The translations under genes and the position numbers were made by a program. From contig JAZLLH010000059.1 in NCBI GenBank assembly GCA_045598025.1, positions 1 to 56,191 on the forward strand: a stretch of 56,191 bases of DNA, read 5' to 3'. Under the pieces are notes generated by a model. That model worked only from the letters and a program-made list of their open reading frames with translations. It was not told the DNA's origin and made no database searches. This document shows, piece after piece, positions 1 to 21,158 of the stretch (position 1 is the first letter of the stretch; every line of letters begins with the position of its first letter). The stretch comes from Bacteroidales bacterium. Lineage in GTDB: Bacteria > Bacteroidota > Bacteroidia > Bacteroidales > WCHB1-69.

Positions 1-216
1 CATGCCGACAGATCCCGTCATGGCACAGTTCAGACAGCAGTCGCCCAGTGTTTCTAGCATCCGTCCGAAAACAGCCCTGGCTGTTTCTTTGATGTCGGTG
101 TTGTGGCGTCGGTAGTCTGTAAACAATATCTGTCCTTCATCGTCCGTAACAATCATTTTGAAAGTGGTGGATCCGATGTCTATGCCTGCGTGGTACAAAG
201 GAATACTTCTGTCCAT
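1..216 (-). CDS. Acyl-CoA dehydratase activase-related protein (BadF/BadG/BcrA/BcrD ATPase family), 5' part only; runs off the window start
   Basis: Hand translation from ATG at 216: MDRSIPLYHAGIDIGSTTFKMIVTDDEGQILFTDYRRHNTDIKE...MTGSVGM. GIDIGSTTxK and TGSxG are the ASKHA/activase motifs. Not in the ORF track because it is truncated. Confidence 0.8.
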   Translation of the reverse strand, partial: MDRSIPLYHAGIDIGSTTFKMIVTDDEGQILFTDYRRHNTDIKETARAVFGRMLETLGDCCLNCAMTGSVGM

Positions 217-350
217 AGATATTATGATTAATATTAACAACTAACCCGGATAAAATGCTTTTATTGTCTTTTCAGGATATATATTTCCTTGTTGTTGAAA
301 GGTATTGTACGAAATGAGACGGAAATTGTCCGATTTTTCCTCATCGTTTG

Positions 351-1304
351 TCACCTGGGGAAATTCAGACCTTCTTTTTCGGCATATTGCTGTAAAATTC
401 TCATTACGGCTTCCAATTTCCGGTCAAAATCCAGACATCCGTCAATAGGGTGAAGAATGAATCCTTTCTTTTCCATATGACGGAACCATGTTTCCTGTCT
501 TTTGGCGAACTGGTGTATGGCCGTATTGAGTCGAAGTACCATATCTTCATAGGAAAGTTCCCCTGTCAGGTAAAGGGTGATGAATTTGTATTCCAATCCG
601 TAGTAGGTCAGCTGTTCTTTTGTCAGTCCGTCTTTCATCAGGGTCTCCACTTCTTCCACCATTCCTTCTTTTAATCTTGCGTGCAGGCGCTGGGTAATTC
701 GTTCTCTTAATATTTCCCGCGGATATGACATTTTGAAAATCAGATGATTAGGTCTGATATTCTGCCTTTGCAACTGATTTTTTCTGTAAAATTCCTGTAT
801 TTCAATGGCTCTAAGCAGGCGTTCCCGGGTTTCTGTATCACTGTTGTTGTGCAGATGTATATAGGATTTCAGAATTTCTGTCAGTTCCTCCATGTCTTTG
901 TTGGCGAGAGTGTCTCTCAGGTCTTGGTTCCAGGGAACTTCCTCCAGGGTGTAATTCTCAAGCACGGATTCTACGTACATTCCGCTTCCACCGCACAGCA
1001 CAGCATTTTTCCCTTCTTTTTGGAGTTGCCGGTAGATACGATCAAAATCCCGTCGGTATTCGAATACATTGTATTCTTCTCCGGCATCGCGTATGTCAAT
1101 CATATAGTAGGGAATCTGTCGTCCTTGGAATGTGTATTCCGAAAGGTCTTTTCCTGTTCCTATATCCATCCGGCGGTAGACCTGCCTGGAATCGGCGCTG
1201 ATAACGGCTGCTGACAGATGTCCTGCAACAGCAGCTGCCAATCGGGTTTTCCCGGTGGCGGTCGGTCCGGTGATGCATATGAGCGGCAGCATGTTATTTC
1301 TCAT
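351..1304 (-). CDS. miaA: tRNA dimethylallyltransferase
   Basis: P-loop GPTATGKT, SADSRQVYRRMDIGTGK, LCGGSGMY, C-terminal FAKRQETWFR. The start overlaps the upstream stop (ATGA). Confidence 0.93.
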   Translation of the reverse strand: MRNNMLPLICITGPTATGKTRLAAAVAGHLSAAVISADSRQVYRRMDIGTGKDLSEYTFQGRQIPYYMIDIRDAGEEYNVFEYRRDFDRIYRQLQKEGKNAVLCGGSGMYVESVLENYTLEEVPWNQDLRDTLANKDMEELTEILKSYIHLHNNSDTETRERLLRAIEIQEFYRKNQLQRQNIRPNHLIFKMSYPREILRERITQRLHARLKEGMVEEVETLMKDGLTKEQLTYYGLEYKFITLYLTGELSYEDMVLRLNTAIHQFAKRQETWFRHMEKKGFILHPIDGCLDFDRKLEAVMRILQQYAEKEGLNFPR

Positions 1305-2086
1305 TTTTTTTTGCTGTATACATTGTATGCTTCCCTAACCATTCTTTCGATTTCCATTTCGTCGGATTGTACCAAACGGTAATAGGAAAATGAACAGTAG
1401 GCCATGAATTCTTCCAATTCGTTGCCTTCCAAGCCTGTCCATTTGGATACAAGTCCAGGATTGTATCGGTTTCCCAATTGTTCCACTTCTGCGTCGTGCT
1501 GTGCCATGTAGGCATAAATCCGGTTGAGTTTGGCTTTTTTGCTGAATGTTTCGTACAGATAGGTTATGGGATGGGTGGTCAGCATATTGGGAGAGGGTTT
1601 CATACAAGCATCGGCCTTTTGCAACTCAGTCAGAGTAATAGGTTCTGCTGTGTGTACGGCATCTGATGCTACGTCCTCCAGAAAAAGCGGATATGGTTTC
1701 AATGCATAAAAAGTCAATTCTTTCAGCATGATACTTTTCATTTCCATGTGAATGATGCAACGGTTTTGTATGGCCAGCAGGGAGTCGTTCAGTATGATGT
1801 TTCCCATGGAATAACCTACCCGCGTCATGATAAGGGTATCATTTCCCCTGACAATCATAGCGAAATTACCATCGGAAGAAGAAAATGTAGCCCTGCCTGT
1901 ACTGATATTGTGAATGCACACATTTTCCAGCGGAGTGTTGGATTGAAGGTCTCTGATATTGCCTTTCCAAATGTTTCGGTGCTGTGCCCATACGGATGAG
2001 TACGGCATGAACAGCAATATGATGTAAAGTGCGCGGAATCTCATGTATGAAAAACGGAGCAGTATCTTTCTTATTGCCGTATACAA
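1301..2086 (-). CDS. Secreted carboxypeptidase-like regulatory domain protein; true start probably ATG 2044
   Basis: Signal peptide ending VWA|QH, then GNIRDLQSNTPLENVCI...ATFSSSDGNFAMIV..DTLIMTRVGY, a CarboxypepD_reg-like sandwich pattern. The track's TTG start at 2086 lies against a terminator U-tract. Confidence 0.65.
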   Translation of the reverse strand: MYTAIRKILLRFSYMRFRALYIILLFMPYSSVWAQHRNIWKGNIRDLQSNTPLENVCIHNISTGRATFSSSDGNFAMIVRGNDTLIMTRVGYSMGNIILNDSLLAIQNRCIIHMEMKSIMLKELTFYALKPYPLFLEDVASDAVHTAEPITLTELQKADACMKPSPNMLTTHPITYLYETFSKKAKLNRIYAYMAQHDAEVEQLGNRYNPGLVSKWTGLEGNELEEFMAYCSFSYYRLVQSDEMEIERMVREAYNVYSKKK

Positions 2087-2088
2087 TC

Positions 2089-2117
2089 AAAAAAAAAGCC
2101 CCTTGAAGGGGCTTTTT
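2089..2117 (-). terminator. Rho-independent terminator downstream of the T9SS repeat gene
   Basis: AAAAAGCCCC-TTGAA-GGGGCTTTTT hairpin; the A9 run at 2089-2097 gives a U-tract on the minus strand. Confidence 0.8.
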
Positions 2118-2134
2118 AGAGTAGCATTCTTTCC

Positions 2135-4210
2135 TTAGTTCTCACCATTTCCGTTGATGATGACCAACTTCTTGATGATATTCATCTTCTCCGTCGATAC
2201 TCTAAGGAAATATTCTCCGCTGGGGTAATCTGCTGTGGAAAAACGCACTTCCTGATGATCGTCGGTGATGCGGATGCTTTCCTGATGAAGGATATTTCCT
2301 GCCGCATCGGTAATGCGGATGATATTCTCGCCTTTCATGTCATTGAATTCGACGGTGAAGTGATCATTGGTGAAGGTGGGGTTCGGATAAATACGGATGG
2401 CCGTATTTATATAGGATTTGATGTGTTTGGTAATCACAGCAGATTCTCCGCAGTCATTGATTGCCTGTACGGTCAAATCAGCTTCTCCATAGCCCATGCG
2501 ATTGGGAATTTCCAGATAGATGCCGTTGCCTTCACGGTTGTGGTTAACGATGTTCCAGTAAGGATTACTGCAGGTCCATTCGTAATGAGTGGTCGGGAAA
2601 TTGTTATCCACAAGTTCTGTGGCATATTTGAATACACCTTCTTTACCGATTTTTTCATCTCCGTATATGGAGTCGGGATCAGCAGGAACGAAATGTTCGT
2701 TGATGCGCAACAGTATGGTGCTATCACATCCGTTTACTGTCTGCATGACGACAGTGTAATATCCTCCTTGCTGGAAGAGACTGTCACCGTAGCGGAACGG
2801 AAAATCCTGTTCGTGGCACAAGGTCACTTCGTCCATATGTGTATAGGTTGGGTTGACGGAAAAGTTTACGTGGACGATGCTGTCACATCCATTGATTGTT
2901 CTGTAACTGATGGTGTGTTTTCCCTGGTTGGTGAAAATGTTGTTTGCATCGAAGGTGTAGGGAAGGGCATCTCCACAAACCGACAACTGTACATTCTTTT
3001 CATAGGAAGGATAAACGGTCAGGTTCAGATGGATGATACTGTCGCAGCCATTCTGAGAGTAAAATTGCACATCATGTACACCGGAGGCAGTGAATTCCTG
3101 GTTGCCGTAGCGGTAGGGAAGATCTTTCTCGCAGATGCTGGCGTCCACTTTGCGCTCATAGGCTGGAAGCACTTTAAGATAGAGTGCAATGATGCTGTCG
3201 CATCCGGACTGGCTGGTCAGGAATGCCGTGTCGCGTATGCTGCTGTAGTAATTTCCCCCATTGAAGATATAAGGAGCTTCGTTGGCACAAATGGTGACTT
3301 CTCTGTTTTCGAAATACAGACGTCCTTCGTTTACTTTCAAGGTGACCACGCTGTCGCATCCGTTGGTGGCGGTAAAATGTACGTTGTAGATACCGATTTT
3401 GGTAATGGTGTCATTTCCGTAAACAAAGCCTTCTTTCAGTTCATCCGCACATACGGTTTTCTGATCGGAGGAGGAGAAAGACGGATTGACGCTGAAATCT
3501 ATTTGAAAGACACTGTCGCAGCCTTGTTTTGTGTAAAAATTCTGTTTGTAGTTTCCGCTGGTGTACAGGTTGATGCCGTGCCAATTGTAGGGAAGGGAAC
3601 TTTCGCAAACCTGCAGCGTTTCATTCTGATTGTATGCGGGCTTGACTACGATGGTAGCATTGATGACACTGTCGCAGTGACAGCCGAAGGTTTTCAGTTG
3701 CAGCGTCTTTTTGAAAGTGCCCACTTTCTGTCCGTAGATGTCGCCTCCGAACTCGTAGGCCTCCCCTTGACAGAGATCAATGTCAACATTTCTGTTGTAG
3801 GTATTGTAACTGTTGATGGTCAGTTGAATGATGCTGTCGCATCCGTAGACTGTGCGCAGTGTATCTGTGTAGATTCCGCTCTGCTTGTAGGTCTTCCCAT
3901 TGTAGGTGTAACCCGTGGATTTCAGAGTGTTTTCACACAAACCTGCCCAAAGTTTGTTCACATGACTATCGTGTACAGACAATGACAGGCGGCAGACCGA
4001 ATCCTGCCCGCTACTACCTACAAAGTGCACGTAGTATATGCCGGCTTTGTAGTATTTCTGACCACCATAGGAGTAAGGCAGATCATTGCTGCAGATTGTT
4101 ACTCCGGGAAGGAAATTGGTATCCGGCTTTTGGGCCGCAACCTGAGAGTGGAAGCACAGCAACAGGAGTGCGCACCCGATTCCGAAAAACTGTTGTATAG
4201 ATTTTTTCAT
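2135..4210 (-). CDS. T9SS type A sorting domain protein with nine ~53-aa Cys-paired repeats and a PKD-like domain
   Basis: Signal peptide (VAA|QK); repeats C..xLPY.YG...G.Y...F...GCDS(I/V); C-terminal IYPNP...ITDAAG...YPSGEYFLRV...KKLVI sorting domain. Confidence 0.85.
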   Translation of the reverse strand: MKKSIQQFFGIGCALLLLCFHSQVAAQKPDTNFLPGVTICSNDLPYSYGGQKYYKAGIYYVHFVGSSGQDSVCRLSLSVHDSHVNKLWAGLCENTLKSTGYTYNGKTYKQSGIYTDTLRTVYGCDSIIQLTINSYNTYNRNVDIDLCQGEAYEFGGDIYGQKVGTFKKTLQLKTFGCHCDSVINATIVVKPAYNQNETLQVCESSLPYNWHGINLYTSGNYKQNFYTKQGCDSVFQIDFSVNPSFSSSDQKTVCADELKEGFVYGNDTITKIGIYNVHFTATNGCDSVVTLKVNEGRLYFENREVTICANEAPYIFNGGNYYSSIRDTAFLTSQSGCDSIIALYLKVLPAYERKVDASICEKDLPYRYGNQEFTASGVHDVQFYSQNGCDSIIHLNLTVYPSYEKNVQLSVCGDALPYTFDANNIFTNQGKHTISYRTINGCDSIVHVNFSVNPTYTHMDEVTLCHEQDFPFRYGDSLFQQGGYYTVVMQTVNGCDSTILLRINEHFVPADPDSIYGDEKIGKEGVFKYATELVDNNFPTTHYEWTCSNPYWNIVNHNREGNGIYLEIPNRMGYGEADLTVQAINDCGESAVITKHIKSYINTAIRIYPNPTFTNDHFTVEFNDMKGENIIRITDAAGNILHQESIRITDDHQEVRFSTADYPSGEYFLRVSTEKMNIIKKLVIINGNGEN
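2696..4102 (-). repeat. Nine tandem ~53-aa protein repeats ending in GxDS(V/I/T)
   Basis: Cores GQDSV, GCDSI, HCDSV, GCDSV, GCDSV, GCDSI, GCDSI, GCDSI, GCDST counted in the translation. Divergent at DNA level; boundaries approximate. Confidence 0.85.
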
Positions 4211-4263
4211 ATAATAACTGTGTTTTTATCTAATAATGTATTTTATCAATAATATATATGTTA

Positions 4264-6237
4264 TCAAGCATCAATTTGTGCGAAAGTGGCGTTGCGTTCA
4301 ATGAATTCCCTTCTGGGGCCCACTTCGTCACCCATCAGCATGGAGAATGTGTGATCGGCTTCAGCCGCATTTTCCAGTTGGACCTGGCGCAGCATTCTGT
4401 TTTTCGGGTCCATAGTGGTTTCCCACAGCTGGTCATCGTTCATTTCACCGAGACCTTTGTATCGCTGTACGCTCACGTTTTTGTCTTTACCGGCTTCCTG
4501 GTATCTGTTCAGAATGGAGATGCGTTCCTCCTCTGTCCAGCAGTACTGGTGTTCATTCCCTTTTTTGATAAGGTAAAGAGGAGGAGTGGCGATGTATACG
4601 TGCCCGTTTTCGATCAACTCGCGCATATAGCGGAAGAAAAATGTCAGCAACAGTGTAGCGATGTGGGCTCCGTCCACATCGGCATCGGTCATGATGATCA
4701 CCTTATGATATCTCAGTTTGGAAAGATTCAGGGCTTTGCTGTCCTCTTCCGTGCCGATGGTAACACCAAGGGCGGTATAGATATTTTTGATTTCTTCACT
4801 TTCAAAAGCTCTGTGTTGCAGTGCTTTTTCTACATTTAAAATTTTACCTCTCAGCGGAAGTATAGCCTGAGTGCGGTTGTCGCGACCTTGCTTTGCTGTT
4901 CCTCCTGCAGAATCACCCTCAACGAGAAAGAGTTCGCAAACGGAGGGATCCTTGTCTGAGCAGTCGGCCAGTTTTCCAGGCAGTCCGGAACCGCTCAATA
5001 CGTTTTTGCGCTGCACCAGTTCTCTGGCTTTGCGGGCGGCGTGACGGGCCTGGGCTGCCAGAGCTACCTTATCGACAATGTTTCTGGCTTCTTTGGGATG
5101 TTCTTCCAGATAATTGGTCAAGGCTTCGCTGACCATTTGGCTGACGATACCTTCCACTTCGCTGTTTCCCAACTTGGTTTTCGTCTGTCCTTCAAACTGA
5201 GGCTCAGCCACCTTGACGGAAATGACGGCAGTCAATCCTTCACGGAAGTCATCACCGTTGATTTCTATCTTCTGCTTGTCTAATTTTTCCAACAACTTAT
5301 TGTCGTCGGCATATTTTTTCAGTGTGCGGGTCAAACCTCTGCGGAATCCGGAAAGGTGAGTGCCGCCTTCATGAGTATTGATGTTGTTGACATAGGAATG
5401 CAGGTTCTCCGAATAGGAGTTATTGTACTGCATGGCAATCTCAATGGGCACCCCGGATTTTTCCCCTTCAATGTAGATGGGTTCTGCACTCAAATGCTCC
5501 CGATTGTCATCCAGGTATTTGATAAAGTCAATCAGGCCTTTTTCAGAATGGAAAGTTTCGGAGTAGAACTCGCCGTTTTCCTTCGCATTGCGCCGGTCTG
5601 TAACACTCAGTGTAATGCCCTTATTCAGAAAAGCCAACTCCCGCATCCGGGTAGCCAGCGTGCTGTAATCGTATTCGTGAACGACAAAAATAGAGTCGTC
5701 TGGAGTGAATTTCATGTAGGTTCCCGTCTTGTCGGATGTGCCTACCACTTTGACCGGATAAAGGGGTTTCCCATAGGCATATTCCTGCTGGAAGTGTTTC
5801 CCATCGCGGAAAACCTCCACCTGCAGGTGTTTGGACAAGGCGTTGACGCATGACACACCGACACCGTGCAGACCTCCGGACACTTTGTAGGAACCCTTGT
5901 CGAATTTACCTCCTGCGTGCAGTACGGTCAATACGACTTCCAAAGCAGAGCGGTGTTCCTTTTCGTGCATGTCGGTGGGAATACCACGTCCGTTGTCCAG
6001 TACGGAAATCGAATTGTCCTCGTGGATGGTGACTTCGATGTGGTCACAGAAACCCGCCAAAGCTTCGTCTATGGAATTGTCCACTACTTCGTAAACCAAG
6101 TGGTGCAGACCTCTTTCGCTGATGTCTCCGATGTACATGGCCGGACGCTTGCGAACCGCTTCCAAACCTTCCAATACCTGGATGTTGTCAGCAGTATAGG
6201 AAGCCTGTGTCCCCTTTTTCTCTTCTAACTCACTCAT
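4264..6237 (-). CDS. gyrB: DNA gyrase subunit B
   Basis: GLEAVRKRPAMYIG, EVVDNSIDE, GGLHGVGVSCVNALS, TOPRIM EGDSAGG, PLRGKILN, MTDADVDG, QRYKGLGEM. Confidence 0.97.
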   Translation of the reverse strand: MSELEEKKGTQASYTADNIQVLEGLEAVRKRPAMYIGDISERGLHHLVYEVVDNSIDEALAGFCDHIEVTIHEDNSISVLDNGRGIPTDMHEKEHRSALEVVLTVLHAGGKFDKGSYKVSGGLHGVGVSCVNALSKHLQVEVFRDGKHFQQEYAYGKPLYPVKVVGTSDKTGTYMKFTPDDSIFVVHEYDYSTLATRMRELAFLNKGITLSVTDRRNAKENGEFYSETFHSEKGLIDFIKYLDDNREHLSAEPIYIEGEKSGVPIEIAMQYNNSYSENLHSYVNNINTHEGGTHLSGFRRGLTRTLKKYADDNKLLEKLDKQKIEINGDDFREGLTAVISVKVAEPQFEGQTKTKLGNSEVEGIVSQMVSEALTNYLEEHPKEARNIVDKVALAAQARHAARKARELVQRKNVLSGSGLPGKLADCSDKDPSVCELFLVEGDSAGGTAKQGRDNRTQAILPLRGKILNVEKALQHRAFESEEIKNIYTALGVTIGTEEDSKALNLSKLRYHKVIIMTDADVDGAHIATLLLTFFFRYMRELIENGHVYIATPPLYLIKKGNEHQYCWTEEERISILNRYQEAGKDKNVSVQRYKGLGEMNDDQLWETTMDPKNRMLRQVQLENAAEADHTFSMLMGDEVGPRREFIERNATFAQIDA

Positions 6238-6270
6238 TATTAGTATCTATGTTAAAACATATACGCTGTG

Positions 6271-6278
6271 CAAAAATA
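6271..6278 (-). promoter_or_regulatory. Bacteroidota -7 box (TATTTTTG) for gyrB
   Basis: Matches TAnnTTTG ~35 nt upstream of the gyrB ATG; divergent partner box at 6349. Confidence 0.55.
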
Positions 6279-6348
6279 GGAAAAAATTCAATACGCTCAA
6301 GTCGAAAAACGGACTTTTTTTTACGAAAAATGATATTGGAAAAATAAC

Positions 6349-6356
6349 TACTTTTG
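6349..6356 (+). promoter_or_regulatory. Bacteroidota -7 box (TACTTTTG) for the murD-like gene
   Basis: TAnnTTTG followed by CA, upstream of the ORF. Confidence 0.6.
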
Positions 6357-6378
6357 CATTTCCCGTCCGAAATGGCGG

Positions 6379-7770
6379 ATGGTGTGCAAGGAATCGGATT
6401 CCCATAAAAAGAAATCTATGGATGTAATGGAATACAATTCAGTGAAAATCAAAAAAATGCTTGACGGAATCAAGGGTAAGAAACTGTTGATACTGGGCTT
6501 TGGCAGGGAGGGCCGTTCCAGTCTGCACCTGTTGAGAAAATTTTTGCCGGATGCCGATTTTGCCGTAGCAGATGCCAATACGGCTTTGGCTTCCGAGTTG
6601 TCAGATCTGTTGCCGAAGGATCGTATTTTTCTGGGACCGGATTATTTGCAGGCCGTACCTCGTTTTGAGGTAGTGTTGCAGTCTCCGGGAATCTGTTTGA
6701 AAGACTGCATGCCGCTTTTTGAAAAGGTGAGGCTGACTTCGCAGACGGAATTGTTTCTGGAGGCTTATCGAGACCAATGCATAGCAGTGACGGGTACCAA
6801 AGGAAAGAGCACCACTTCTTCCCTGATTGCCCATTTGCTCAAAGAAACGGGTCACGAGGTGGTCTTTGGCGGGAATATAGGCCTGCCTCTGTTTGAACTG
6901 CTATCGCAGATTACTCCGCAGACACATATTGTGTTGGAACTTTCCTGTCATCAGCTGGAATTTGTAAACGTCAGTCCGCACGTGGCCGTGCTGCTGAATC
7001 TGTTCGAAGAACATTTGGACCATTACCGCAGTTACGAAGCCTATCAGGAAGCCAAGTATCAAATAGCTCGGCATCAGCATTCAGAGGACGTCTTTATCTG
7101 TTCAGGGGAAGATGAACGCATCGCCCGACTGATGGAAAAGTTTCCGCCCCGTGCACACTTGCAGACTTTTTCCTCGGGCAATCTGCCGTCGGTACTGCGG
7201 ACAGAGAATTTTCCGCTGCCGGGGGAACACAACCGTCTGAACGCGATGGCTGCGCTACTGGCCGTACAGGCCATGGAGCCTTCCGTAAAACCGGAGCAGT
7301 GGCAGTCCGCACTGAACTCTTTCCGGAGTTTGCCGCACCGTATGGAATATGTGGGTGAAGTGAAGGGCATCCGTTTTTTCAACGACAGCATCTCTACCAT
7401 ACCTCAGGCCGCTGTTGCTGCCGTGAATGCCTTGAAGGATGTGGAAACTTTGATTTTGGGAGGAATGGACAGAGGTATTGATTATACGCCTCTGATACCT
7501 CTGTTCGCCAGTTCTTCCGTGCGTCACTTCCTCTTTACTGGCGCTGCGGGAAAACGGATGATGGGTCTGGCCAATCCATCGGACGGGCGGACTTTTGCCT
7601 TTTTTGAACAATATGAGGATATTGTGGAAGAGGCTTTTCGCAGAACGTCTCCCGGAAAAATCTGTCTGCTGTCGCCGGCGGCCCCCAGTTACGATGCCTT
7701 CAGGAATTTTGAAGAGAGGGGTGAAGTGTTCAGAAAATTGGTTTTGAACAGGAAATCTTCAAAAAAATGA
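6379..7770 (+). CDS. murD: UDP-MurNAc-L-Ala:glutamate ligase, MurD2-like motif set; start may be 6418 or 6427
   Basis: ILGFGREG, SPGI, AVTGTKGKSTT, GGNIG, LELSCHQL, EEHLDHY, FFNDSISTIP, GGMDRG, LLSPAAPSY. Confidence 0.88.
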   Translation: MVCKESDSHKKKSMDVMEYNSVKIKKMLDGIKGKKLLILGFGREGRSSLHLLRKFLPDADFAVADANTALASELSDLLPKDRIFLGPDYLQAVPRFEVVLQSPGICLKDCMPLFEKVRLTSQTELFLEAYRDQCIAVTGTKGKSTTSSLIAHLLKETGHEVVFGGNIGLPLFELLSQITPQTHIVLELSCHQLEFVNVSPHVAVLLNLFEEHLDHYRSYEAYQEAKYQIARHQHSEDVFICSGEDERIARLMEKFPPRAHLQTFSSGNLPSVLRTENFPLPGEHNRLNAMAALLAVQAMEPSVKPEQWQSALNSFRSLPHRMEYVGEVKGIRFFNDSISTIPQAAVAAVNALKDVETLILGGMDRGIDYTPLIPLFASSSVRHFLFTGAAGKRMMGLANPSDGRTFAFFEQYEDIVEEAFRRTSPGKICLLSPAAPSYDAFRNFEERGEVFRKLVLNRKSSKK

Positions 7771-14928: not shown

Positions 14929-17190
14929 TCAGAATTTCATACCCCAGTGCAGACTCCACAGGAAGGGGAGCTGATAGATTTTTTCATTGGTTTTCCGGCT
15001 GACGTAGAAAATATTGGCGTAATTATACACATTGGTCGCACCGATGCCGATTTCGGAACGTACTTTGTCGGAATGAATGAAGGTCCGGTTGAGGTTGATG
15101 TCCAAACGGTGATAATCCGGCAACTGTCCCTTGTTGAGCTCATCCAGCACTATGCCGGGGGTTTCGTTGACAGGGATGATGTCGGAACCTATGTCTGTGA
15201 TGTTGTCTATGTTGGGATACCATGCCTTGGTCTGTGTAAAGGGGAAGCCGGAACCGTAGTTCCATCTCAGACTGGCTTCCCAACGGTCGTTGCGTCCCCA
15301 GTGGAAGGTGGATGTGAGATTCAGGTTGTGGCGGCGGTCGAAGTGGGTCCGGTATACAATATTGCCGTCGTTGCGGTGAACCCAGTTCAAGGAGTATGCC
15401 AGCCAGATGTAAAGCTTTTTGTGATCGTATTTGAGGGAAATGTCTCCTCCGTAGGAGTTTCCTGTTTCCAACATGAATTCATCGTCCTCTTCAAACATCT
15501 GGTAGCGGTTGATGTTGGTCAGACGTGAGAAGTTTTTGTAGTAGGCTTCTATATTGGCGATCAGGTACTCGGTGACATCGAATTCCATACCGCCAACCAC
15601 GTGCTGACTTTTTTGCAGGCTATTGCGGATATTCTTTCCGGAAAGGGTTTCGGATTCCGGTACGGTGAGAAATCCGTAGAAAAGGTTGACCACATCCTGA
15701 TCCGAGGTGGCCCCAATGATATTCTGGGAATACAATCCCCCTGCCATTTTGAAACGTAATCGCTTGCTTGCCAAATATTTAATAGCAAAACGGGGTTCCG
15801 GTGAGGTTGCGTTTTGGGATGCATAGTTGTCCAATCGGAAGCCGGGTTCAAAAATCCACTTGTTCAATATCCATTTGTATTTGATATACAAGGCAATTTC
15901 GCTGTTGAAACTTCTTTGTCCGCAATCCACTCCATAGGCATTGGTAAATTCATAATCCAGCCAGGTCCCGGTCAGTTCTATCCCATACTTGAAGGCGTTT
16001 TTTCCCAGCAGGTAGGTGAATCCTGTGGAGAAAGAGAAGTCTTTAATGCTGCTGTGTCTGCCGAAATCAGTATATTCATCCAGATTCATTCCGTAGTTGG
16101 AATAGGCGAGTGTGCCGTCAACAATCAGGTTGGACGAAGAAGGAAGAATCATGAAATTGCTTCCCATTCCCCAGGAATTCCATTGATATCGGGCGATTTC
16201 AGGATAGTTCACCTGATCTGTGAAACAAAATCCGAATACATTGATACGGCTGGATTCGGATGTTTCAAAAGTAAGCTTTCCGTATCCGTCAAAGTAGTTA
16301 TAGGGAAGTCCGTCTTCTCCCGCATAAGGGTATAGGACTTTGGAAGTCTGTTCCAGGTATGAACCCTTGAGTGAGGTTAGAAAGGATATGGAGGTTTTGT
16401 CTTTTTTTGTGATTTTTTTCAGAGGACCCTCCAGGAGCAGTTTGGCTCCGAAGGTGCTGATATCGAATTTTCCTCCGAAATCCTTTTTGTTTCCGCTTCG
16501 GGTTTCAATATCCATTATGGAAGAGGTGCGTCCACCGTATTCTGCATTGAATCCGGCTGTGAAGATTTCCGCATCTTTCAGAATGTCTGTGTCGAATACG
16601 GAGAACAGGCCGATGGAGTGAAAAGGATTGTAAATGGTCATGCCGTCCAGCATGACTTTGTTCTGTATGGGCGTGCCTCCCCTAACGTAGAGTTGTCCTC
16701 CCTGGTCACCTGTGGAAACAATGCCGGGCAGAATCTGCAGGTATTGGGCCAGATCCGGTATGCCTCCGATATTGGGAATCTGTGTGATTTGTTTGGGCAC
16801 AACATACTGAACGGAGGCTCTGACTTCGGTCAGGCTGATCATGCGGTCGGCCGTGACAGTGGTGCCTTCCAACTGATACACGGAAGGCGATAGCCGATAA
16901 GTGTTTTTGATGATTTCGTCTTTCTGTATGCTGATCTGCGTAATCAAAGAATCGTATCCCACACAAAATATACGCACCTTGTAGGTCCCGGCCGGAATTT
17001 TGACGATGGAAAAGTGTCCATTGTCATCAGAAATGCTTCCTACTCCCAATTCCGGCAGGTATATGGAACAGTAGGAAATAGGCTCCAGAGTGGTTTCTTC
17101 AATGATATTTCCTCTGAAAATTCCTCCCTGTGCCATCAGGATGGAATGGAAAAGCAAGCTTAGTGCGGTCAGGCAGAGGATTTTTTTCAT
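14929..17190 (-). CDS. TonB-dependent receptor with N-terminal carboxypeptidase-like domain
   Basis: Signal peptide LMA|QG; plug motif QILPGIV..GGQLYVRGG...VMLDGMTIYNPFH; barrel motifs FDRRHNLNL, LPDYHRLD; terminal Phe. ATG 17190 overlaps the rnc stop (ATGA). Confidence 0.88.
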   Translation of the reverse strand: MKKILCLTALSLLFHSILMAQGGIFRGNIIEETTLEPISYCSIYLPELGVGSISDDNGHFSIVKIPAGTYKVRIFCVGYDSLITQISIQKDEIIKNTYRLSPSVYQLEGTTVTADRMISLTEVRASVQYVVPKQITQIPNIGGIPDLAQYLQILPGIVSTGDQGGQLYVRGGTPIQNKVMLDGMTIYNPFHSIGLFSVFDTDILKDAEIFTAGFNAEYGGRTSSIMDIETRSGNKKDFGGKFDISTFGAKLLLEGPLKKITKKDKTSISFLTSLKGSYLEQTSKVLYPYAGEDGLPYNYFDGYGKLTFETSESSRINVFGFCFTDQVNYPEIARYQWNSWGMGSNFMILPSSSNLIVDGTLAYSNYGMNLDEYTDFGRHSSIKDFSFSTGFTYLLGKNAFKYGIELTGTWLDYEFTNAYGVDCGQRSFNSEIALYIKYKWILNKWIFEPGFRLDNYASQNATSPEPRFAIKYLASKRLRFKMAGGLYSQNIIGATSDQDVVNLFYGFLTVPESETLSGKNIRNSLQKSQHVVGGMEFDVTEYLIANIEAYYKNFSRLTNINRYQMFEEDDEFMLETGNSYGGDISLKYDHKKLYIWLAYSLNWVHRNDGNIVYRTHFDRRHNLNLTSTFHWGRNDRWEASLRWNYGSGFPFTQTKAWYPNIDNITDIGSDIIPVNETPGIVLDELNKGQLPDYHRLDINLNRTFIHSDKVRSEIGIGATNVYNYANIFYVSRKTNEKIYQLPFLWSLHWGMKF

Positions 17191-17894
17191 ACGGGGATAC
17201 TCAATTGTTCGCATGCTACAATGGATGCGTGCTGTTCCGCATTCTTAATGATGGTGTCGCATCCGTTGGCAATCCATTCATTATTGACATATAGTGATAC
17301 CACATACAGATTCCGGTTGTTGTATTTCAACTCTTTACTGATTTGGTACCGTATTTCGCTTTTGTTTTTCTGCCCCCAGGCCATTACTTTTCCTTTGAAA
17401 TTGGAAGTGGATTCCGCTATTTCTTTGAATGCCGTTTGTTGTTCCAACAGGTAGTTCAGGATGATTTTTTGGGTAAAATCTCCTCCTTTGTCCAAATAGA
17501 GGGCTCCCAAAAAAGCCATCAGAATGTCACTGTTGATGTAATCCCTCAGTAACAGAAATTTTTCGTCAGTCTGAGGATAACAATCCATCTTCAGACGCTG
17601 GGCAATGCGGCTCAGGTAGGCGTGGTGCGTGACTTTCTGATACAGGTCCTGAATCTGTTCTGAGGTAGAAAGCAGGTATTTCCGATAGAGGAAAAGGCAG
17701 AGCGAACTTCTCAGTATGGTTTCACCCAGGCAACTCAGCCTTTCGTTATTTTCCGATAGGGAGGGTTCCAATAGCGGAATGGCCCATGCTTTTCTGTAAG
17801 TGTGCAAGCGGTTGCGTTTCGGCCTGAAACCGCAAATGGTTTTAAGATATGCCTGAAATTCCTTGTCTTTTGCAAATATCGGTTCGTTTGGCAT
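17187..17894 (-). CDS. rnc: Ribonuclease III homolog with degenerate catalytic signature and a dsRNA-binding domain
   Basis: Position directly after fabF; NNERLSCLGETIL (canonical NERLEFLGDAIL); DILMAFLGALYLDKG (canonical DAFEALIGAIYLD); C-terminal NFKGKVMAWGQK...KNAEQHA dsRBD. Confidence 0.8.
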   Translation of the reverse strand: MPNEPIFAKDKEFQAYLKTICGFRPKRNRLHTYRKAWAIPLLEPSLSENNERLSCLGETILRSSLCLFLYRKYLLSTSEQIQDLYQKVTHHAYLSRIAQRLKMDCYPQTDEKFLLLRDYINSDILMAFLGALYLDKGGDFTQKIILNYLLEQQTAFKEIAESTSNFKGKVMAWGQKNKSEIRYQISKELKYNNRNLYVVSLYVNNEWIANGCDTIIKNAEQHASIVACEQLSIPV

Positions 17895-17896
17895 AT

Positions 17897-19147
17897 TTAA
17901 CGATTCTCGTGCTTTTGAAAAAGTATGGAGGTGTTGTGTCCACCGAATCCGAACGAATTGGATATGGCAACCCGAATTTCTTTTTTCAAGGGATGGTCAA
18001 GTACAATATCCAGATCGGAAGGGATGTTTTCATCTTTTTGGTCTACATTGAGTGTGGGCGGTACCATGCCATGCTGTATGGATAATATGGCGGAAATGGC
18101 TTCGACCGCTCCGGCTGCACCCATCAGATGCCCAAATACGGATTTGTTGGCTGTCAGTGCCAGATGATCAGTATGCCCTGCAAATAATTTGCAAATGGCG
18201 CGAATTTCAGCGAGATCACCGGCCAAGGTGGAGGTGGCATGGGCGTTGACGTGGTCCACTTCCTCCGCACGGACGCCAGCTTCTTCCATCGCATAACGCA
18301 TGGACAATTCGGCGCCTATGCCTTCCGGATGCGGGAGGGTGATGTGATAGGCATCCGCAGAAAGTCCGACACCTCCTATTTCCGCATATATCCGTGCCCC
18401 TCTTCGAAGGGCGTGTTCCCTTTCCTCCAAAACGAGGGCTCCCGCGCCTTCTCCCATGACAAAACCATCCCGGTTCGCATCAAACGGACGGGATGCCGTC
18501 TGCGGACTTTCATTCCGAGTGGAAAGAGCCCGGGTGGAATTGAATGCGGCTATGCTCACAGCATTGATAGGAGCTTCCGAACCTCCGGTAACGATGACGT
18601 CCGCTTTTCCGAGACGGATATGGGCGGTTGCATCGGCAATGGCATTGGCAGAGGAAGCGCAGGCAGAGGAAACGGAGTAGTTGACTCCCATGTATCCGTG
18701 TCGGATGGCAATCTGCCCGGAGGCTATATCGGAAATTACTTTGGTGACGAAAAAGGGAGAAATTCTGGGGTCTTCCAATTCCAGCAACCGGCCTTCTTCA
18801 TAAAAGGTGGTAGAACCACCCATTCCGGTACTGAAAATGACTCCTACACGCGCTTTGTCAACTCCATCTTCCTCCAATCTGGCATCCCGTATGGCCTCGT
18901 CCGAGGCCGCGATGGCAAACTGGGAGAACAAATCAAGTTTGCGTGCTTCCTTGCGGTCAATATACTGAAGGATGTCAAAATCCTTCACTTCGCAGGCGAA
19001 GCGGGTCTTGAAATGTGAAGCGTCAAAACGGGTGATGGGGCCGGCACCGCTTACACCGGACAACAGATTGTCCCAGAAAGAGGAACAGTCATTGCCTATC
19101 GGTGTAAGGGCCCCCAAGCCGGTAACAACAACTCTTCTTAATTCCAT
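17897..19147 (-). CDS. fabF: Beta-ketoacyl-ACP synthase II
   Basis: RRVVVTGLG, SSACASS (catalytic Cys), VNAHATST, KSVFGHLMGAAG, SNSFGFGGHN. Confidence 0.95.
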   Translation of the reverse strand: MELRRVVVTGLGALTPIGNDCSSFWDNLLSGVSGAGPITRFDASHFKTRFACEVKDFDILQYIDRKEARKLDLFSQFAIAASDEAIRDARLEEDGVDKARVGVIFSTGMGGSTTFYEEGRLLELEDPRISPFFVTKVISDIASGQIAIRHGYMGVNYSVSSACASSANAIADATAHIRLGKADVIVTGGSEAPINAVSIAAFNSTRALSTRNESPQTASRPFDANRDGFVMGEGAGALVLEEREHALRRGARIYAEIGGVGLSADAYHITLPHPEGIGAELSMRYAMEEAGVRAEEVDHVNAHATSTLAGDLAEIRAICKLFAGHTDHLALTANKSVFGHLMGAAGAVEAISAILSIQHGMVPPTLNVDQKDENIPSDLDIVLDHPLKKEIRVAISNSFGFGGHNTSILFQKHENR

Positions 19148-19165: not shown

Positions 19166-19405
19166 CTATTTTTCAGCGACAGCGGCTGATACGAAATTGA
19201 TAGCGTCCTGAATGGTTTGGATCTTTTCCTGTTCTTCTTCCGGAATTTTGATTTTGAATTCGCTTTCGAAAGCCATCAGCAGTTCTACATTGTCCAAAGA
19301 ATCGGCGCCGAGGTCGTTAACGAAACTTTTTTCGGGCGTGATTTCTGCAACATCTCTTCCTAATTTGTCTGCAACAATGGCAATAACTTTTTCTTCAATG
19401 TTCAT
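19166..19405 (-). CDS. acpP: Acyl carrier protein
   Basis: [12 protein letters not shown] phosphopantetheine motif; 79 aa from ATG 19405; upstream of fabF. Confidence 0.95.
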
Positions 19406-19438
19406 AATAAGCGTTTTTAAAAGTTTTGTTTTAGAGTG

Positions 19439-19446
19439 CAAAATTA
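19439..19446 (-). promoter_or_regulatory. -7 box (TAATTTTG) for acpP-fabF-rnc-TBDR-tcdA
   Basis: TAnnTTTG ~35 nt upstream of the acpP ATG. Confidence 0.6.
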
Positions 19447-19481
19447 ACACTTTTTGGAACATCTGACGTTTTTTTTTGTCT

Positions 19482-19547: not shown

Positions 19548-21158
19548 ATGAAAAAAGGCAAATCAGGGATACCCCATACTTTCACCATCGTGTTTTTTGT
19601 GATTTTGGTAGCAGCATTGCTCACCTGGTTGCTTCCGGGTGGAGAGTTTGTTCGGACTTCGGTGGAGGTTCCGGGAAGCGGCACCCGTGAGGTGGTAGTT
19701 CCGGGTTCCTATCATTCGGTCGGTCATCAGTGGCAGACATGGCAGGTTTTTTCTTCTTTGTATGACGGATTTGTCCGGACGTCCCACATCATCGTATTCA
19801 TTTTTATGATAGGCGGAAGTTTTTGGATTGTCAATCACACCCGAGCGGTTGAGGTGGGGGTTTCTTCTTTTTTGAGCAGTGTCAGCCGTTGGCAACAAAA
19901 AAAACTGTTTCGTAATTTCCGGGCGGATTCGCTTATAATAATACTGATTATGCTGATGTTCAGTTTGTTTGGAGCGGTATTCGGAATGAGTGAAGAAACT
20001 TTGGCTTTCATGGCGGTGTTCGTTCCTTTGGCCGTTTCCATGGGTTATGATTCTTTGGTCGGCATGGGCATGTGCTATTTGGCTGCTCATGTCGGTTTTG
20101 CCGGTGGCATGCTGAATCCTTTTACCATCGGGATAGCACAGGGTTTGGCCGAGTTGCCGGCATTTTCGGGATTGGGGTACCGTTTTCTGTGCTGGGGTAT
20201 CTTTACTGCAGCGGGTATTTTTTTCGTGCTCCGTTATGCTTCCCGCTTACGCAAAAATCCCCGTCTGTCACCCATGTATGAAGCGGATGCATACTGGCGG
20301 GAACGTCTGTCCGGGAAAGAGGATTCCGAAATGGTGAAGCCGGCGGGACCTTTTGCCTGGGCTGTGTTCGCTGCCGTGTTCCTGACGGGCATTCTGCTTT
20401 CTTTTGCATTTCCCATGACGGAAATCAGTCTGAGTCAAAGTGTGTGCCGTCTTCCATTGGTGCCCGTATGCACGGGATTGTTTCTGTTATCGGCCGTTCC
20501 GGCACTGAAAAAAAATGTTCAGCTGTTTATTATGGATTTGCTGCTGACAACCATATTGGCCCTCGTCGTGGGTGTATTGGGCTATGGCTGGTACATCCGC
20601 GAAATAGCGGCTTTGTTTCTGGCGCTCGGCATATTATCCGGAATTGCCTATCGTTGTTCTTTGGATGCCATCATGCGTCTGTTCCTGGAAGGGTGCAAGG
20701 ATATGTTGACCGCAGCGCTGGTAGTGGGTCTGGCCGGAGGTATCATTGTAATATTGCAGGACGGCAAAGTAATAGATACTATGCTGTATGCCATGTCTGA
20801 GGCTGTGAGCGGAGCCGGACGCGTGGTCTCCGTCGGAGGAATGTATCTGTTTCAAAACGGCTTGAATCTGGCTATTCCCTCCGGATCGGCCAAGGCAGCA
20901 TTGACCATCCCTATCATGGCTCCGTTTTCCGATTTGTTGGACATATCCCGGCAAACGATGGTCCTTGCTTTTCAGTTCGGCGACGGTATTACCAATATGG
21001 TAACTCCTGCTTCCGGTGTGCTGGTCGGATGTCTCGGCGTGGCCAAAGTGCCGTACTCCGTATGGATGAAATGGATTGGCAGATGGATTATCCTGCTGTT
21101 CGTCATCGGTTTTCTGTTGCTGTTGCCCACTTTGTATTTTCCAATCAGCGGATTCTGA
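19548..21158 (+). CDS. YfcC/DcuC-family (AbgT-like) membrane transporter
   Basis: IPHTFTIVF, FGAVFGMSEE, GMLNPFTIGIAQ, IPSGSAKA, AFQFGDG.TN..TP.SG; many TM segments. Confidence 0.85.
   Translation: MKKGKSGIPHTFTIVFFVILVAALLTWLLPGGEFVRTSVEVPGSGTREVVVPGSYHSVGHQWQTWQVFSSLYDGFVRTSHIIVFIFMIGGSFWIVNHTRAVEVGVSSFLSSVSRWQQKKLFRNFRADSLIIILIMLMFSLFGAVFGMSEETLAFMAVFVPLAVSMGYDSLVGMGMCYLAAHVGFAGGMLNPFTIGIAQGLAELPAFSGLGYRFLCWGIFTAAGIFFVLRYASRLRKNPRLSPMYEADAYWRERLSGKEDSEMVKPAGPFAWAVFAAVFLTGILLSFAFPMTEISLSQSVCRLPLVPVCTGLFLLSAVPALKKNVQLFIMDLLLTTILALVVGVLGYGWYIREIAALFLALGILSGIAYRCSLDAIMRLFLEGCKDMLTAALVVGLAGGIIVILQDGKVIDTMLYAMSEAVSGAGRVVSVGGMYLFQNGLNLAIPSGSAKAALTIPIMAPFSDLLDISRQTMVLAFQFGDGITNMVTPASGVLVGCLGVAKVPYSVWMKWIGRWIILLFVIGFLLLLPTLYFPISGF

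Follow-up and report, generated by a model that had tools for sequence, protein, structure and literature searches.

A catalytically degenerate RNase III kept under purifying selection at the fabF-rnc locus of an uncultured rumen Bacteroidales genus

Ribonuclease III (RNase III) is usually regarded as an enzyme of nearly all bacteria, and the physiological weight of its binding-only effects has been argued mainly from Escherichia coli rnc70. Mutants of this type (E117K, A or Q) do not cleave in vivo or in vitro and retain the binding of double-stranded RNA (dsRNA) (PMC8708148, Table 1; PMC10037077), rnc70 acts dominantly on the regulation of lambda N expression (PMC8708148), and such proteins can control gene expression through binding alone (PMC8708148, citing Dasgupta 1998; PMC10037077). 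Among the other active-site residues, E41A and D45E/N mutants are weak and E65A is inactive in vivo (PMC8708148, Table 1), while a deep mutational scan found that E41, D45 and E117 tolerate no substitution and that D114 is a tolerant position (PMC10037077). The enzyme is dispensable in most bacteria (PMC8708148). For a natural, sole-copy, catalytically dead bacterial Rnc we found no description in a non-exhaustive search of the literature, which returned nothing but laboratory mutants and cases from eukaryotes or organelles. Here, we analyzed the rnc orthologue (17187..17894, minus strand) of a Bacteroidales bacterium, located on contig JAZLLH010000059.1 of GenBank assembly GCA_045598025.1 (positions 1 to 56,191, the whole stretch being referred to as the window). 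The assembly (1.9 Mb, 97% complete) is designated G000, and the gene encodes a 235-aa catalytically degenerate class 1 RNase III (pseudo-RNase III), as identified from its open reading frame, Pfam and NCBIfam matches, positional orthology, and an AlphaFold2 model compared by Foldseek.

A sequence-only reading of the window had proposed that this RNase III is catalytically dead, and the residue changes on which it relied were recovered from the codons and from alignments. The signature motif (E. coli E38-D45), canonically ERLE[FY]LGD, reads ERLSCLGE (17721..17744, minus strand), with E41 changed to S, F42 to C and D45 to E, and the second motif, canonically G[DN]AFEAxxGAxYLD, reads DILMAFLGALYLD (17490..17528, minus strand), where D114 is kept and E117 is replaced by M. 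The N-terminal H-x-S motif (E. coli H29/S31) is also gone, as had been claimed: its site (17772..17789, minus strand, AWAIPL) reads I-P-L at positions where canonical order-level relatives carry H in 33/34 and S in 34/34 cases. In E. coli numbering, the window protein thus has E38, S at 41, C at 42, E at 45, S at 65, D114, and M at 117, i.e., it is substituted at all three intolerant positions and its one conserved acidic residue is the tolerant one. Judging from published mutagenesis (PMC8708148, PMC10037077), Mg2+-dependent dsRNA cleavage by this protein is predicted to be absent, and the E. coli background quoted in the sequence-only reading agrees with these papers. The frame itself is full length (235 aa) and has no internal stops, again in agreement with the earlier description.

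The degenerate gene is shared by a whole clade. A search with TIGR02191 over 61 related genomes recovered a stop-free rnc copy with 79–95 bits in four of the five genomes of the genus (G000, G001, G003, and G004), all of them metagenome-assembled genomes (MAGs) of uncultured rumen Bacteroidales from cattle and water buffalo, compared with 150–210 bits in every further rnc-bearing genus of the order and family (150–190 bits within the family). Five metagenome sequences (P0002–P0006, 42–47% identity) were added from a protein database, and a profile search of 1.84 billion representatives yielded two further near-duplicates, after which the score dropped from 363 bits to the 203 bits of the best canonical match. 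The clade set comprises 11 sequences from rumen MAGs and metagenome contigs, nine of which were aligned for position counts; about 135 nearest canonical representatives and 34 order-level relatives served for comparison. The fifth genome of the genus (G002, 89% complete) has no rnc, and a real loss was rejected because the orthologous acpP-fabF locus is unassembled as well, the sole fabF match being a paralogue of 41% identity that belongs to a fabH-fabF-fabZ-fabG cluster.

Within this clade, E41, E65, and E117 are absent from all 11 sequences, while positions 41, 45, 65, and 117 are E, D, E, and E without exception in the ~135 nearest canonical proteins and the 34/34 order-level relatives. 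E117 is replaced by K in 10 of the 11 sequences, M being found only in the window protein. Over the 11 sequences, S, A, V or I occupies position 41 (E41 in 0/9 aligned members), E, H or G position 45, with D in one sequence (1/9 aligned members), S, A, V or T position 65, and E, D, G or A position 38 (E38 kept in 5/9 aligned members); neither residue of the H-x-S motif occurs in the aligned members (0/9 for each). The window protein carries a Glu one residue past the E65 position (S78-E79), so that E65 may be regarded as either shifted or lost in G000, and it is clearly lost in 7 of the 9 aligned members. D114 is invariant across the clade, and the canonical proteins have D or N at this position. 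As a side observation, most canonical Rnc proteins of the Bacteroidales carry N there (motif GNAFEA), which is consistent with the mutational tolerance of D114 (PMC10037077), while the degenerate clade keeps D.

The two domains have fared differently. The RNase III-like domain (RIIID; residues 47-151, 17442..17756, minus strand), delimited by the PF14622 and PF00636 matches, holds the degenerate active site, and the dsRNA-binding domain (dsRBD; residues 167-231, 17202..17396, minus strand), delimited by the PF00035 match, is fully conserved; that this domain is kept had been stated in the sequence-only reading. All seven dsRBD positions that are conserved at ≥ 90% in canonical proteins (N165, K167, Q175, G211, K217, Q221, and A223) are kept in 9/9 clade members, and the domain contains 24 of the 38 clade-invariant columns. 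In the RIIID, about 15 canonical positions with the same level of conservation (≥ 90%) are lost, including H39/S41 (H-x-S), E54 (= E41), D58 (= D45), E78-G79 (= E65-G66), R85, S86, G122, E126 (= E117), and D135. The hydrophobic and glycine framework of the RIIID is retained (L53, L56, G57, L94, A127, A131, and G137), as is the hydrophobic core of the signature helix (L..LG). In addition, the clade has fixed residues seldom or never found in canonical proteins (C21, W37, S95, R96, R100, L116-R117-D118, S122, K126, L189-K190-Y191, W207, N210, C212, and N218), a pattern that points to new constraint and not to mere relaxation. Identity between G000 and the sister genus amounts to 28–32% in the RIIID and 49–51% in the dsRBD, compared with ~50–55% in both domains for canonical pairs of similar depth. 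The stem branch of the clade measures 0.81 substitutions per site for the whole gene, 1.08 for the RIIID (the longest internal branch in the tree), and 0.54 for the dsRBD, and the crown depth is 1.0 vs. 0.33 for the two domains, whose total tree lengths are equal overall. In the nuclease domain, change thus came in a burst, and a partial relaxation has persisted since. A shift in the net charge of the degenerate RIIID, with a basic valley replacing the acidic one, was considered and rejected, as there was no overall difference from canonical proteins.

Selection on the gene was estimated with the NG86 method in the closer subclade (P0002–P0005) and by maximum likelihood (ML) with a GY+F3X4 codon model on nine sequences. 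For close pairs, NG86 omega (dN/dS) was 0.08–0.12 for the whole gene, 0.08–0.16 for the RIIID, and 0.035–0.06 for the dsRBD, with 0.107 for fabF (one pair, P0002–P0005). The ML values were 0.088 for rnc (0.119 for the RIIID and 0.033 for the dsRBD) vs. 0.092 for fabF, and the canonical sister pair G008–G029 gave 0.145 for rnc and 0.105 for fabF. The degenerate gene is intact in four genomes of the genus and in at least five further metagenome lineages, and the stops and frameshifts that would have indicated simple decay among relatives were found in none of these nine or more lineages. Since its omega is low and on a par with that of fabF, the degenerate rnc is not decaying, and the purifying selection acting on it is estimated to be as strong as that on fabF. 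The two options that had been left side by side, a dsRNA-binding pseudo-nuclease or a gene under relaxed selection, can thus be told apart: omega of ~0.09, retention and the conserved dsRBD support the former, and on the same data the latter is rejected.

By family and fold the protein is a member of the bacterial Rnc lineage. It matches Ribonucleas_3_3 (PF14622, 44 bits), Ribonuclease_3 (PF00636, 32 bits), and dsrm (PF00035, 25.7 bits), and with 82.3 bits it remains below the curated cut-off (166.25) of TIGR02191, the NCBIfam Rnc equivalog. A PDB sequence search gave an end-to-end alignment with the RNase III of Thermotoga maritima, in which the E of the NEKLEFLGD motif lies opposite S and that of DAFEAL opposite M, and chains of the mitoribosomal protein mL44 were among the best sequence matches. 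The AlphaFold2 model built from the nine-sequence clade alignment (mean pLDDT 81.6) consists of an all-helical N-terminal domain (helices H10-H162) followed by an alpha-beta-beta-beta-alpha C-terminal unit. Foldseek matched it with probability 1.00 to the RNase III of T. maritima (1o0w), E. coli (7r97), and Aquifex (2nug), to Drosha and to mL44 (ranks 2–4), with the Aquifex E110K and D44N mutants also among the matches; the TM-scores were modest (0.4–0.5), which is to be expected when a flexible linker separates two domains. The architecture is that of class 1 RNase III, one RIIID followed by one dsRBD within ~220–250 aa, while the presence of a dsRBD and the loss of the catalytic residues separate the protein from Mini-III (MrnC). 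An RIIID fold, non-functional catalytic residues and purifying selection place it among the pseudo-RNase IIIs, which are a class defined by function and not by descent; in its ancestry the protein is a bacterial Rnc. In the ML tree the clade is monophyletic (UFBoot 100), and its nearest canonical relatives by sequence score belong to one canonical genus (G008, G029, and P0010).

No back-up enzyme was found. Searches of G000 with PF14622, TIGR02191, and PF00636 gave no second RIIID or Mini-III gene, the degenerate rnc was the only match when all 24,389 six-frame open reading frames of G000 were scanned by unfiltered hmmsearch with a profile of canonical Rnc proteins from Bacteroidales, and PF00636 detected no further RNase III-family gene across the five genomes of the genus, which have the degenerate copy only or, in G002, none at all. 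Of the two consequences drawn previously, a second active rnc is therefore excluded by these searches, and RNase III-independent rRNA processing is the option that remains: as the genus has no other RNase III-family gene, its rRNA and mRNA maturation must, going by gene content, proceed by routes other than RNase III cleavage. Five other Bacteroidales genomes (G012, G056, G042, G048, and G014), three of them ≥ 99% complete, carry no RIIID at all, and in G012 and G056 acpP-fabF is intact with unrelated genes downstream instead of rnc, so outright loss of rnc recurs in this order. G031, a congener of G012, has a normal rnc. These five genomes indicate that a dispensable gene is normally deleted and not preserved, and the contrast between deletion elsewhere and conservation here argues for a useful role of the dead protein.

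The only assembled rRNA operon of the genus is that of G004, with a 23S rRNA gene cut by the contig end. The best 16S leader-trailer duplex of this single operon (−53.7 kcal/mol) was not significantly better than shuffled controls (−47.5 ± 4.8 kcal/mol). Its 16S rRNA, likewise the sole one assembled for the genus (G004:C19, 4110-5538), spans 1429 nt for Rfam model positions 1-1533, and its annotated 5' end is unlike a typical 16S start and may be shortened or misassembled. Outside the window, contig C56 of G000 (1-6793) carries an intact type II CRISPR-Cas9 locus with a 1463-aa cas9 frame (2405-6793, minus strand), two downstream frames that are candidates for cas1 and cas2, and an array of 47-nt repeats cut by the contig start. 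Some 15 nt ahead of the spacer, and on the strand opposite to cas, each repeat contains TACTTTTG, a match to the TAnnTTTG promoter motif of Bacteroidetes. By analogy with type II-C systems that have in-repeat promoters, CRISPR RNA (crRNA) biogenesis in G000 would have to be RNase III-independent.

The locus is the canonical one. The gene is the positional orthologue of rnc: the gene immediately upstream is fabF, encoding beta-ketoacyl-ACP synthase II (17897..19147, minus strand), and the same holds for every clade locus and for 30/30 canonical ones, in keeping with what had been noted for the window. The first gene of the acpP-fabF-rnc string is acpP (acyl carrier protein; 19166..19462, minus strand), next to which a divergent DcuC-family C4-dicarboxylate transporter (19548..21158, plus strand) keeps its position in the clade contigs. 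Downstream of rnc follows a TonB-dependent receptor (CarboxypepD_reg and Plug, 753 aa; 14929..17190, minus strand), for which MKKIL..., a signal peptide, is the likely true start. The proposed coupling to both neighbors is visible in the sequence, as the fabF stop (17897-17899) ends 2 nt ahead of the rnc ATG and the rnc TGA overlaps the receptor ATG as ATGA (17187-17190). The order DcuC / acpP-fabF-rnc-TonB receptor is found on every clade contig that reaches far enough. On such contigs the receptor is 69–72% identical, with a partial match of 55% on a seventh contig; it is more conserved than rnc across the clade and always abuts or overlaps the rnc stop. It was not downstream of rnc in the four canonical relatives checked, and the adjacency of the two genes is clade-specific.

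We consider it likely, with a probability of roughly 70%, that the protein is a pseudo-nuclease retained by purifying selection as a non-cleaving dsRNA-binding protein. The scenario we propose is that the ancestor of one uncultured rumen Bacteroidales genus lost the carboxylates that hold the catalytic Mg2+ ions (E41, E65, E117, and usually D45), after which purifying selection maintained the protein in a non-cleaving form. Of this, the data directly show the residue losses, the sole-copy status, the orthology, the fold, the selection, and the unequal conservation of the two domains. It most likely still dimerizes and binds dsRNA as E. coli rnc70 (E117K) does, and it may act by occupancy instead of cutting, stabilizing, masking or chaperoning structured RNA, with pre-rRNA stems, antisense duplexes, and mRNA hairpins as candidate targets; here we infer dsRNA binding, from dsRBD conservation only, as well as dimerization and the identity of the targets. 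A wider claim, that a free-living gut genus gave up RNase III-type cleavage altogether and that its sole rnc was neofunctionalized into a non-catalytic RNA-binding factor (a dsRNA or pre-rRNA chaperone or a regulator) bearing newly fixed surface residues of its own, is more tentative, and we place it slightly below even odds. Several points weigh against retention as a non-cleaving dsRNA binder. The "ball" residue F42 is C in G000 and G001, and F42G/D/R are inactive in E. coli; RBM3, the RNA-binding motif of the RIIID around E65, is remodelled, and RNA affinity or specificity may hence differ from that of rnc70. Every genome is a MAG, and the clade is small (~10 distinct sequences, with 3–4 representatives at 50% identity among 1.84 billion). 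Finally, dS is saturated for most species pairs (many values being undefined), and omega rests mainly on one subclade and the codon model.

Other explanations of the same data differ in what they make of the conserved dsRBD and of the neighboring genes. The protein could be a structural factor of ribosome biogenesis or of the ribosome itself that binds rRNA or pre-rRNA for good or in passing, a bacterial analogue of mL44 and not a general dsRNA-binding regulator; mL44 is indeed among the best matches in both sequence and fold, pre-rRNA stems are the ancestral main substrate of Rnc, and E. coli rnc mutants, rnc70 included, lose pre-rRNA nucleoid localization (PMC8708148). We nevertheless regard this as unlikely, because any protein with an RIIID and a dsRBD would resemble mL44 to the same degree and because the leader-trailer duplex of the G004 operon does not stand out from its controls. 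Still less probable is a retention unrelated to RNA, either as a protein-protein scaffold or as a frame needed for the translational coupling or expression of the TonB-dependent receptor. The ATGA overlap and the tightly conserved, clade-specific adjacency would suit such a role, but coupling needs only translation up to the stop codon, and it explains neither a dsRBD omega of 0.03 nor the retention of all canonical dsRBD RNA-contact positions.

That the enzyme is still an active endoribonuclease with a rearranged, non-canonical active site seems very improbable. D114 is invariant in the clade, E38 persists in five of the nine aligned members, and G000 has E at position 45 and a Glu adjacent to position 65, all of which could be read in favor of residual catalysis. 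The replacements, however, vary from member to member (S/A/V/I at 41, E/H/G/D at 45, E/D/G/A at 38, and K/M at 117) and form no conserved alternative acidic constellation, D123 being the only invariant acidic residue in the RIIID, and E117K alone kills activity in E. coli and Aquifex (PMC8708148; PDB 1rc7, 1yyo). Simple decay after loss of function, i.e., relaxed selection on a gene that has not yet been disrupted, would account for the ~3-fold faster evolution of the RIIID relative to the dsRBD within the clade (crown depths as above) and for an rnc dN of 1.6–2.5 times that of fabF, vs. ~1.1 times in the sister genus. It is effectively refuted by an omega of ~0.1 that is no higher than that of fabF, by the lack of any stop or frameshift in nine or more lineages that are saturated at synonymous sites (by a rough estimate, a randomized 235-codon frame stays open with a probability of ~1e−5), and by the newly fixed clade-specific residues.

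Retention as a non-cleaving dsRNA-binding protein would have consequences beyond this genus. Selection as strong as that on fabF, acting on a sole, rnc70-type rnc, would be direct evidence from evolution that the protein is of value without catalysis, and the clade would supply a natural protein with which binding can be studied apart from cleavage. It would also mean that bacteria can come to live without RNase III cleavage in a second way, by converting the gene instead of deleting it, and the maturation of rRNA, the turnover of antisense RNA, and the biogenesis of type II crRNAs in this genus would all have to manage without the enzyme. Automated annotation will name this gene "ribonuclease III", a label that is probably wrong as to activity. 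If neofunctionalization of rnc is true, the gene would be an "rnc70" that arose in nature and was kept by selection, with mL44 as its mitoribosomal parallel, and a binding-only function alone would be worth keeping.

Set against the known systems, the protein shares with bacterial class 1 RNase III (TIGR02191; 7r97, Aquifex 2nug/2ez6, 1o0w) the combination of RIIID and dsRBD, a length of ~235 aa, the fold, and the acpP-fabF position, and differs from it in lacking E41, E65, E117, the H-x-S motif, G122, and D135, in carrying D45E, and in being predicted not to cleave. With E. coli rnc70 (E117K) and Aquifex E110K it has in common the affected position, where 10 of the 11 clade sequences show the very same change of E to K and the window protein has M. 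Those are, however, single-site laboratory mutants, and rnc70 costs E. coli ~25–29% of its growth rate, whereas the change described here is natural, is accompanied by three more active-site losses and a remodelled RIIID, and is fixed genus-wide. As in mL44 (likewise an RIIID plus a dsRBD), maize chloroplast RNC1, and trypanosome KREPB4/5, an RNase III fold with degenerate catalytic residues is retained, in our case presumably also for binding RNA or ribonucleoprotein. The origins are independent, and those eukaryotic and organellar pseudo-RNase IIIs either occur together with active RNase III enzymes or are part of large complexes, whereas here a bacterial genome has no RNase III-family member besides the dead protein. 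Life without RNase III cleavage has been reported for Deinococcus radiodurans (PMC8708148) and is seen in the five Bacteroidales genomes without an RIIID, lineages which show that the activity is dispensable. These deleted the gene, while the rumen genus retains it under selection in a non-catalytic form.

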